64,000 nt of DNA from Escherichia coli (lineage in GTDB: Bacteria; Pseudomonadota; Gammaproteobacteria; Enterobacterales; Enterobacteriaceae). The stretch lies in the NCBI RefSeq assembly GCF_013122565.1, contig NZ_CP053258.1. The stretch is one strand, 5' to 3'. Every line of letters starts with the position of its first letter. Position 1 is the stretch's first letter. Of the stretch, positions 39,128 to 62,737 are shown in pieces. The position numbers were made by a program, and so were the translations under genes. Below the pieces are notes generated by a model that made no database searches, had not been told where the DNA came from, and saw only the letters and a list, made by a program, of their open reading frames with translations.

Positions 39128-39507
39128 TGTTTTCCTTGCGGGTTGTCCCGAACCTCTTTGACGGATGTAATTAAAATGTTGAATCAAAATACATAGATAT
39201 TAATTATGATCGTGGCAAATTTTATTCATTAAATCAATTAAATCACTTAAACCTGCGGGTCATTTCGCAATTACATTAATTAAAAAACTTAAAACCATTA
39301 AATAAATAAAAAACCACTAACTCTATGTGAAATAAATCAAAATTTCACGCCGAAATACTCCTTAGGATGTATAGCGAAAGGAGAAAAAGATATACCTCGA
39401 TCGCCCTCCCTTTCTCCCAAGTGAAAATAAAAGGTTATCAGTTTGCAACATTGAACAACATTCGTTGCAAATCGATAACAATATGCACCTTCAGGATACT
39501 ATTTATT
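39128..39507. promoter_or_regulatory. Divergent dpiB / citC control region (AT-rich)
   Basis: 380-bp AT-rich spacer between divergent starts; contains palindrome at 39443-39470. Confidence 0.5.
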
Positions 39508-47167: not shown

Positions 47168-47396
47168 TCATCTGATTTACAAAACACGCTAATTCGTCTC
47201 CCATAAACCATGACGATTAAGATTTATACATAATGCGCTGCATTGAGGAATTCCCTGAATGTGACGCAAATCACTTCAAAGAGTGAGCAACAGTCAGTAT
47301 CATCATGTGAGTTAAACCCTCGCCGCCTGACGGTGAGGGTTTTCTTTTGGGTATGTTTATCTGCGACACTCGCAGTACCGACGACATGGAGTAAAA

Positions 47397-59289: not shown

Positions 59290-61395
59290 TTAGTGCGCGC
59301 CTTTTGCCTGCGCCACGATCTCCTCGACATTTTCCGGCATCGGCTCATACGGCGTTTCTTTCGCCGTTGGCTTCGGATCTTTCAATGCCGCAAGTGCCGT
59401 CTTAATCGAGAACAGTGCCAGAACCACCACGACCACCATAAAGAAGATGGTTAACCCGGCATCCAGACGGTTGTTGAACACCAGTTGCGCCAGCTGTGAC
59501 TCAGTATACTGCGACGGAATATTGCCGCTGTCGATCATTGCCTGGAACTTGTTAGCAATCGCCAGGAAGCCGACTTTCGCATCCGGGCTAAACGCTTTCT
59601 GCCAGCCTGCGGTCAGGGTACAAATCAGCAGCCAGGCCGTTGGTACCAGCGCCACCCAGGCGTAACGTTGACGTTTCATTTTGAACAGCACTACGGCACA
59701 GAGCATCAGCGCCATCCCTGCCAGCATCTGGTTGGCAATACCAAACAGCGGCCACAGAGTGTTAATACCGCCCAGCGGATCGACCACGCCCTGATGGAGG
59801 AAGTAGCCCCACGCCAGTACGCACAGCGCCGTTGCCAGCAGGTTAGCAGGCAGTGAATCGGTCCGTTTCAGACCCGGAGACACCACGCCCAGCAGATCCT
59901 GCAACATAAAGCGCGCAGCACGCGTACCTGCATCCACCGCCGTCAGAATAAACAGTGCTTCAAACAAAATGGCGAAGTGATACCAGAACGCCACATCCAT
60001 CATGCCGCCCAGCGCGCCGTGCAGAATGTAGGCCATCCCCACCGCCAGCGTCGGCGCACCGCCCGCACGGGAAATGATCGACTGTTCACCCACTTCGCTG
60101 GCAATCTGGTTTAGCGTATCCGGGGTAATCGCAAAGCCCCAGCTACTCACCACCTGCGCGGCAGAAGCGACCACATCCGCCGTCCCTGCCGGAGCCAGCA
60201 CCGCCATCGGGCTGTTCATGGCGAAGTACACACCCGGATCGATGATACAGGCGGAAACCAGCGCCATAATCGCTACGAAGGATTCCATCAACATCCCGCC
60301 GTAGCCGATAAAGCACGCCTGCCCTTCGTTCGCCAGCATCTTCGGCGTGGTGCCGGAAGAGATCAGCGCATGGAAGCCAGACACCGCGCCACAGGCGATG
60401 GTGATAAACAGGAACGGGAACAGGTTACCGGTCCATACCGGGCCAGTGCCATCGACAAATTTGGTCAGCGCAGGCATGGTCAGCGTCGGGCGCATAATCA
60501 AAATGCCTACCGCCAGACCGACGATAGTCCCGATTTTCAGGAAGGTAGAAAGGTAGTCACGCGGAGCCAGCAGCAACCACACCGGCAGCACCGCCGCCAC
60601 AAAACCGTAACCCACCAGCATCCAGGTCAGCTGCACGCCGGTAAAGTCAAAGTACGGTGCCCAGGTCGGGCTTTCTGCCACCCAGCCGCCAGAGATAATG
60701 GCGAAAATCAGGAATACCAGACCGATGACCGACACTTCACCAATACGCCCCGGACGCAGATAGCGCAGGTAGATCCCCATAAACAGCGCCAGCGGAATGG
60801 TGAACGCAACGGTATACGTTCCCCACGGGCTATGAGTCAGGGCTTTCACCACGATCATCGCCAGTACTGCAAGGATAATGACCATGATCATAAAGCAGGC
60901 CACCAGCGCTATCACCCCGGCGGTTGGCCCCATCTCTTCTTTGACCAGCTCACCCAGCGATCGACCGTCACGGCGCGTAGAAACAAACAGCACCATGAAA
61001 TCCTGCACCGCACCGGCGAGAACCACCCCGGCGAGCAGCCAGATCATCCCTGGCAGGTAACCCATTTGCGCCGCCAGTACCGGCCCAACCAACGGACCTG
61101 CTCCGGCAATGGCCGCAAAATGGTGACCGAACAGCACTTTCTTGTCCGTCGGCACATAGTCCAGCCCGTCGTTATGCCGCACCGCTGGCGTCATACGCGT
61201 CGGGTCAACCGCCAGCACATTTTTGGCGATATACAGACCATAAAAACGGTAAGCGATCAGATAGATACAGACCGACGCCACCACAATCCACAGTGCGTTG
61301 ATCTGTTCCCCACGATTTAAAGCAATGTATCCCAGAGCAAATGCTCCCATTACAGAGAGCACTGTCCAGACGAGGTATTTCCCTGATTTGTTCAT
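59290..61395 (-). CDS. cstA: Carbon-starvation / pyruvate-peptide transporter CstA, 701 aa
   Basis: Large polytopic membrane protein; recognised sequence. Confidence 0.9.
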   Translation of the reverse strand: MNKSGKYLVWTVLSVMGAFALGYIALNRGEQINALWIVVASVCIYLIAYRFYGLYIAKNVLAVDPTRMTPAVRHNDGLDYVPTDKKVLFGHHFAAIAGAGPLVGPVLAAQMGYLPGMIWLLAGVVLAGAVQDFMVLFVSTRRDGRSLGELVKEEMGPTAGVIALVACFMIMVIILAVLAMIVVKALTHSPWGTYTVAFTIPLALFMGIYLRYLRPGRIGEVSVIGLVFLIFAIISGGWVAESPTWAPYFDFTGVQLTWMLVGYGFVAAVLPVWLLLAPRDYLSTFLKIGTIVGLAVGILIMRPTLTMPALTKFVDGTGPVWTGNLFPFLFITIACGAVSGFHALISSGTTPKMLANEGQACFIGYGGMLMESFVAIMALVSACIIDPGVYFAMNSPMAVLAPAGTADVVASAAQVVSSWGFAITPDTLNQIASEVGEQSIISRAGGAPTLAVGMAYILHGALGGMMDVAFWYHFAILFEALFILTAVDAGTRAARFMLQDLLGVVSPGLKRTDSLPANLLATALCVLAWGYFLHQGVVDPLGGINTLWPLFGIANQMLAGMALMLCAVVLFKMKRQRYAWVALVPTAWLLICTLTAGWQKAFSPDAKVGFLAIANKFQAMIDSGNIPSQYTESQLAQLVFNNRLDAGLTIFFMVVVVVLALFSIKTALAALKDPKPTAKETPYEPMPENVEEIVAQAKGAH

Positions 61396-61575
61396 AGTTG
61401 TTATCCGTGTGCGTGTCCATAGAGATGTTACATTTTGTTTCTATAACATCTTTGTACGATTTAACAACACGGCAACCATGTAAATCGGAGTTGAAACCAA
61501 TATTTAACTTAACAATGTTAACTCGATCACTCCGTTAACCGAGTTTTCCTGCAATCTCATTTAATTCTGTCGGGC

Positions 61576-62737
<1,162 letters not shown>

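Follow-up and report, generated by a model that had tools for sequence, protein, structure and literature searches.

A cAMP-CRP site upstream of cstA and an inverted repeat overlapping it in the entH-cstA spacer of Escherichia coli

Within the 64,000-nucleotide stretch of E. coli DNA analysed here (the window), positions 61516-61531 constitute, with high confidence, the cAMP-CRP activator site of the cstA promoter. This assignment is carried by the demonstrated occupancy of the motif by CRP in vivo, by a promoter that depends on CRP, by a mapped transcription start site (TSS), and by the conservation of the site together with its spacing to the promoter. The site is already known from E. coli itself (Haycocks et al. 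2015), where the gene, the spacer and the 16 bases are the same as in the window and no difference of substance is seen; the finding is therefore an ordinary one. The site overlaps an inverted repeat that could fold as RNA, and most of the alternatives considered below concern that repeat. The features of the locus are as follows.

59290-61395, minus strand: cstA, a carbon-starvation gene encoding a pyruvate/H+ symporter; the gene controlled by the CRP site
61431, minus strand: TSS of cstA (G, 36 nt before the ATG), from genome-wide TSS profiling (PMC3415461)
61438-61467, minus strand: probable cstA core promoter, with -35 TTGTTA at 61467-61462, an 18-bp spacer and -10 TAGAAA at 61443-61438
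61490-61510, minus strand: predicted ArcA~P box AAGTTAAATATTGGTTTCAAC (PMC3798270), directly downstream of the CRP site
61516-61531, minus strand: CRP binding site, AGTGATCGAGTTAACA on the cstA-sense strand, from ChIP-seq motif identity, position weight matrix (PWM), conservation and fixed spacing
61520-61545, minus strand: inverted repeat and potential RNA hairpin, with 5' arm AACUCGGUUA at 61545-61536, loop ACGGAG at 61535-61530 and 3' arm UGAUCGAGUU at 61529-61520
61548-61534 (-153 to -139) and 61539-61525 (-144 to -130), no strand assigned: two overlapping Fis-like motifs GNNNRNNNNNYNNNC, predicted from motif matches
61576-61989, minus strand: entH, last gene of entCEBAH, its stop 28 nt upstream of the near edge of the element

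The spacer between entH and cstA spans 61396-61575 (180 bp), and both flanking genes lie on the minus strand. An earlier note, made from the sequence alone, had described a palindrome in this spacer at 61516-61548 (plus strand, TGTTAACTCGATCACTCCGTTAACCGAGTTTTC), and its coordinates and letters agree with those found here. The element lies 28-60 nt past the entH stop and at -153 to -121 relative to the cstA ATG, that is, downstream of the ent operon and 121-153 bp upstream of the cstA start, close to the 120-150 bp first given; the distance from the entH stop to the 5' arm of the hairpin is 30 nt. As described, TGTTA (61516-61520) and TCACT (61527-61531), separated by N6, differ at two positions from the CRP core TGTGA-N6-TCACA, and the overlapping inverted repeat, AACTCG (61520-61525) with CGAGTT (61540-61545), is perfect over 6 nt with a gap of 14 nt. 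The layout in K-12 is identical (entH end at 629713, cstA start at 629894; MG1655 coordinates equal 691289 minus the window position), and the window differs from K-12 by four SNPs in the spacer, none of which falls within the element. Of 5426 complete E. coli genomes, 5418 match the stretch of 401 bp around the element with an identity of 95-99.5% and annotate it as entH and cstA, and the 48 bp around the CRP site are unchanged in 4673 of 5384 complete E. coli genomes.

The most direct evidence for CRP binding comes from the ChIP-seq study of Haycocks et al. 2015 (PMC4287617), in which cstA is among the 111 high-confidence CRP targets of ETEC H10407. The MEME motif given in Table 1 of that study under the cstA CRP peak is AGTGATCGAGTTAACA, which is the exact reverse complement of window positions 61516-61531. 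In the H10407 genome, the motif is located at 683388-683403, 136-121 bp before cstA, and the tabulated centre of the cstA peak is 208 bp lower than the motif. When three entries of the table were compared with NC_017633.1 (L082, L083), the offsets were 208 bp for cstA and 185 and 175 bp for the next two entries, rnk and rihA. Since neighbouring entries carry the same offset, it reflects a coordinate convention rather than a misplaced peak, and the cstA peak fits the motif. Those who reuse this table need to be aware of the systematic offset, the tabulated centres being 175-208 bp lower than the motifs. A side observation is that cstA in H10407 (L082 825-1001) carries an internal stop and is annotated as a pseudogene, yet its promoter is occupied by CRP.

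CRP dependence of the promoter was reported by Gasperotti et al. 2020 (PMC7730263), where deletion of crp abolishes PcstA-lux activity; dependence of cstA on cAMP-CRP had also been stated in the earlier note. In PMC7730263, the CRP site of Schultz & Matin 1991 is cited as lying within -200 to -120 of the start codon and approximately 80 nt upstream of the TSS. This "putative CRP site" may be the present 16-mer or the weaker TGAGA-N6-GAAAA at -164 to -149. In the literature searched, no CRP footprint or half-site mutagenesis at cstA was found, and searching full texts for the 16-mer or for the alternative TGAGATTGCAGGAAAA led to Haycocks et al. 2015 only. The CRP-like site that had been suggested for cstA thus stands, being the same 16-mer as that under the CRP ChIP-seq peak and being conserved at a fixed distance from the promoter.

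Taken alone, the core motif is no better than chance at the scale of the window. The cstA site matches the CRP core at 8 of 10 positions, and matches to TGTGA-N6-TCACA with two mismatches or fewer occur 17 times in the window, against 26.6 expected. A PWM was built from the 106 other ChIP-seq CRP sites of PMC4287617; the cstA site scores 11.5 bits, which places it in the lower third of the validated sites (quartiles 10.6, 12.9 and 15.0 bits), and 5 window positions score at least as high, against 3.2 expected. Within the 180-bp spacer, on the other hand, it is the sole candidate, the runner-up scoring 3.0 bits, and the chance of such a score in a region of this size is approximately 1%. The alternative TGAGA-N6-GAAAA at -164 to -149 was rejected as a functional CRP site, with a score of only 1.0 bit and no conservation beyond close relatives. 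Stronger CRP-like matches are present elsewhere in the window, at 47260-47275 (TGTGACGCAAATCACT, 15.6 bits), 39326-39341 (TGTGAAATAAATCAAA, 13.3 bits) and 953-968 (GGTGATGGACATCGCA, 13.1 bits).

To place the site in a wider context, 80 cstA loci of Enterobacteriaceae, one per species, were aligned with MAFFT. A CRP site is present upstream of the cstA ATG in all 80 loci, approximately 135 bp from it in most and approximately 203 bp in a few with a longer leader. Across the 80 species, the blocks AGTGATC and TTAACA are 80-99% conserved, the four central positions of the CRP spacer 40-57%, and the sequence farther upstream 20-40%. The centre of the CRP site and the conserved block TTGTTAAA are 56.5 bp apart in 38 loci and 55.5 bp apart in 9, a distance constant within 1 bp (47 loci) even where the length of the leader differs. 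A homologue of entH is found upstream of cstA in 56 of the 80 loci. In the other 24-25 loci, none is found within the available upstream flank, which is shorter than 330 bp in three cases (L016, L023, L027), and the CRP site is nevertheless retained. Because the site is kept where entH is not a neighbour, it belongs to cstA and not to entH.

With the mapped TSS, the CRP site stands at a distance typical of class I promoters. The supplement of PMC3415461 (Kim 2012) gives a cstA TSS at 629081 (U00096.2), with a 5' UTR of 36 nt and 43 reads, and the hexamers TTGTTA and TAGAAA were assigned as the core promoter because of their position relative to this TSS. The -35 and -10 blocks are at least 90% conserved, and the spacer between them is 17 bp in most species. 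The centre of the CRP site falls at 61523.5, which corresponds to -92.5 when counted from the mapped TSS and to -128.5 when counted from the cstA ATG; the proximal edge of the site is approximately 85 nt from this TSS. Given the TSS of PMC3415461, -92.5 is one of the class I/II distances (-41.5, -61.5, -71.5, -82.5 and -92.5), and according to PMC4287617 it is among the two commonest CRP positions.

Based on the results presented above, a mechanism may be proposed. CRP would bind AGTGA-N6-TAACA, with the centre of the site 92.5 bp before the point where cstA transcription begins, and would most likely activate cstA from a class I site through the C-terminal domain of the RNA polymerase alpha subunit, so that the gene would be switched on by CRP once glucose runs out. 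The promoter so activated would be TTGTTA-N18-TAGAAA, with transcription starting 36 nt before the ATG. With class I CRP promoters near -92.5, cstA shares an imperfect TGTGA-N6-TCACA palindrome upstream of the -35 element and on the correct helical face, and at cstA this spacing is held constant across species. It differs from them in that an ArcA box lies between the CRP site and the -35 element and in that a further factor has been postulated.

Different start sites of cstA are in use in the literature: -36 (61431, Kim 2012), -71 (61466, Park 2013 Table S6) and -102 (61497, Potts 2017). Of these, the -71 site is implied by Park 2013, and the -102 site is taken from the 5' UTR column of the CLIP table of Potts 2017. 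A fourth start is added by a promoter predicted from SELEX, TTTACA-15-TAAATT (Shimada 2014). The -36 TSS fits the conserved promoter blocks and the start of the CsrA CLIP peak at -38; with a TSS at -71 or -102, the CRP site would stand at non-canonical distances.

This disagreement alters how the neighbouring ArcA box should be read. The supplement of PMC3798270 reports an ArcA ChIP-seq peak in one replicate, a box of 12.5 bits, and a 21.5-fold increase in cstA expression in the arcA mutant, and the TGTAAAT..GGT block of the box is conserved across species and genera. The box occupies -44 to -24 according to Park 2013 (TSS at -71), versus -79 to -59 with the Kim 2012 TSS (-36). With the latter, it lies between the CRP site and the -35 element, which suggests anti-activation rather than promoter occlusion. 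The GTTAAC copies in the repeat were also considered as ArcA direct repeats and rejected: the distances involved (17 and 9 bp) depart from the 11-bp rule, and the ArcA box described in the literature is the block next to them.

The inverted repeat was then considered as RNA. Read in the sense of the genes, it would form a 10-bp stem (3 G-C, 5 A-U and 2 G-U pairs) with a 6-nt loop, and its 3' arm falls inside the CRP site. The calculated energy is -10.6 kcal/mol for the hairpin alone and -12.2 kcal/mol with a short outer stem; compared with shuffled sequences, z is -2.96 in a 46-nt frame and -1.0 in an 81-nt frame. The minus-strand tail after the hairpin, AACAUUGUUAAG, contains no U run, and a terminator consensus scan of both strands over 61200-61800 gave no terminator-like site. 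The plus-strand version, in which the repeat is followed by TTTT, was rejected: its fold is weak (-5.1 kcal/mol, z -1.1), and none of the genes is read into the repeat in that direction. An Rfam scan of 61250-61750 returned only a meaningless eukaryotic lncRNA match (E 0.63).

The earlier note had proposed a dual role for the palindrome, as a CRP site and as an entH terminator. The CRP part is upheld by the ChIP-seq motif and by conservation; the terminator part is not, since the repeat had been described on the plus strand, where TTTT follows it, and entH is read from the minus strand, and since the minus-strand tail has no U run and the scan was negative. Nor do ent transcripts visibly end at the palindrome: the interval between entH and cstA (MG1655 6296xx-6298xx) has no 3' end in the Term-seq tables of PMC7815308, obtained in media without iron starvation, where ent is probably poorly expressed. 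The literature search on the entH-cstA intergenic region gave nothing on termination. Altogether, a terminator role of the hairpin is unsupported. The nearest Term-seq 3' ends, 629914 and 629954, are 20 and 60 nt inside the cstA ORF (window approximately 61375 and 61335, minus strand). They lie just past the leader bound by CsrA and may represent premature termination or decay products linked to translational repression.

Comparison among species shows where folding is retained. Folding of the equivalent 46-nt frame beats that of shuffled sequences in Escherichia, in most Citrobacter and in S. arizonae (z -2 to -4.8) and nowhere else, z being approximately 0 in the remaining species. In the hairpin-forming clade, the entH-cstA spacer is approximately 180 bp and has no canonical terminator. 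The pairings differ, being AACUCGGUUA/UGAUCGAGUU in Escherichia, whereas Citrobacter and Salmonella pair GUUAAC/GUUAAC together with UUGCA/UGCAA. With RNAalifold, no shared structure is predicted across species (0 pairs), and a two-sided change is seen in one pair only. Strain 2017-02-2CC of E. coli carries two neighbouring mismatches in the centre of the stem and has GGA changed to GAA; its fold is reduced to -5.7 kcal/mol (z -0.14), and the half-sites AGTGA and TAACA remain intact despite the broken hairpin.

In some lineages, classical terminators consisting of a G+C-rich hairpin and a U run stand directly after entH, upstream of the CRP site, at the following positions relative to the cstA ATG.

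L052: approximately -197
L066: approximately -198
L074: approximately -257
L021: approximately -149
L036: approximately -179

A clear terminator of the enterobactin operon is thus present in some lineages and absent from Escherichia, Citrobacter and Salmonella. The genuine terminators (in L052, GCCCCGCUUUCCAGCGGGGC followed by UUUUU) are quite unlike the present hairpin. Like intrinsic terminators in general, the hairpin is a stem-loop that follows closely on the final gene of an operon; unlike them, it has only 3 G-C and 2 G-U pairs, no U tract and no mapped 3' end. The protective 3' hairpins of Rho-terminated transcripts (Dar & Sorek 2018) likewise lie in 3' untranslated regions and lack a U tract; no 3' end has been observed here, nor any sign of Rho, and this is a resemblance only.

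In the preferred explanation, the repeat would be no separate functional device. Its downstream arm would simply be the inside of the CRP site (the spacer and the right half-site), and its upstream arm carries two Fis-like motifs, at which Fis may compete with CRP in fast growth. Several readings of the repeat can be set beside each other here. We incline, without firmness, to the view that it is a functionless by-product of two GTTAAC copies and a CTCG/CGAG pair next to the palindromic CRP site, arisen by chance or by neutral quasi-palindrome correction. The self-complementary GTTAAC occurs at 61517-61522 and 61534-61539, and in Citrobacter and Salmonella the upstream copy is 8 bp farther away, in a different register; there is essentially no covariation, and the repeat is missing from all other genera and is lost in natural E. 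coli variants. That most members of three genera reach a z below -2.5 in spite of their sequence differences is more than one accident would be expected to give, although these hairpin-capable sequences are related to each other and their 3' arm is fixed by CRP. Another reading, possible but held only tentatively, is that the upstream arm is protein-binding DNA, where Fis at 61525-61548 hinders CRP during exponential growth and the dyad consists of overlapping operators. In PMC7730263, Fis was captured on the cstA promoter fragment, a fis mutant showed approximately 2-fold derepression, and two Fis sites were predicted beside or overlapping the CRP site. Both GNNNRNNNNNYNNNC motifs fall here, in agreement with that prediction; they span the left half-site of CRP as well as the repeat's upstream arm, and they are the only two such matches in the 300 bp upstream of the K-12 (L001) cstA ATG, where the stretch is identical to the window. 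The motif is very degenerate, however, and one of the sites has the disfavoured -4A/+4T; moreover, the region is not conserved outside Escherichia, and no footprint was found in the literature.

The remaining readings assign the repeat a function in RNA. That AACUCGGUUA-ACGGAG-UGAUCGAGUU also ends or protects the 3' end of the entCEBAH mRNA, either as a weak terminator without a U tract or as an exonuclease barrier after Rho-dependent termination further downstream, appears unlikely. The hairpin is moderately stable and folds better than shuffled sequences in the 46-nt frame, Escherichia, most Citrobacter and S. arizonae are all hairpin-capable at this place without a canonical terminator, and in some genera whose spacers are longer a classical terminator follows entH instead; the silence of Term-seq also counts for little where ent is probably poorly expressed. 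Against this stand the tail without a U tract, the empty terminator scan and Term-seq interval, the lack of a shared structure with only one pair changed on both sides, and the E. coli lineage that breaks the hairpin and keeps the CRP half-sites, and the 3' arm is already constrained by CRP. The broader proposal, that in Escherichia, Citrobacter and Salmonella the CRP site doubles as the 3' arm of a hairpin that defines or stabilises the ent 3' end under iron starvation, is quite improbable; if true, the same bases would act as DNA in carbon-starvation activation and as RNA in forming the ent mRNA 3' end. Finally, on read-through RNA or on the ent 3' UTR, the hairpin could present its GGA loop to CsrA and serve as a binding element, which we find hardly credible. 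The ACGGAG loop on a 10-bp stem does resemble the preferred shape of a CsrA target, and the expression of ent and cstA is affected by CsrA, but the CLIP-seq peak at the locus covers only -38 to +49 of cstA and none lies on the hairpin, the mapped TSS is downstream of the hairpin, the GGA is gone in the E. coli variant, and the ent effects are described as mostly indirect.

In general, the CRP site at 61516-61531 is of little significance beyond bookkeeping: the carbon-starvation gene is well studied, and its CRP input here is on record already. What the comparative data add is that Enterobacteriaceae keep the site at a constant distance from the promoter, and that CRP stands at -92.5 if the genome-wide TSS is used.

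Two further symmetric elements were seen near the promoter. An inverted repeat at 61423-61451, perfect over 8 nt (AGATGTTA-N13-TAACATCT), covers both the -10 hexamer and the start site and is part of the block with the highest conservation in the spacer (at least 90% in the 80 species). Its folding energy is -16.5 kcal/mol (z -2.97), and it could serve as an operator or, on a longer transcript, as a leader hairpin. The other is a perfect TGGT-N3-ACCA palindrome in Enterobacter, Lelliottia and Buttiauxella (loci L042, L045, L046, L057, L058, L062, L063, L067, L068, L072, L076 and L078-L081), centred 29.5 bp downstream of the CRP centre (approximately 22-32 bp after the site), of which the E. 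coli counterpart is only TGGTTTCAAC. It has the shape of a GntR/PdhR-type operator, which is intriguing in front of a gene for a pyruvate transporter.
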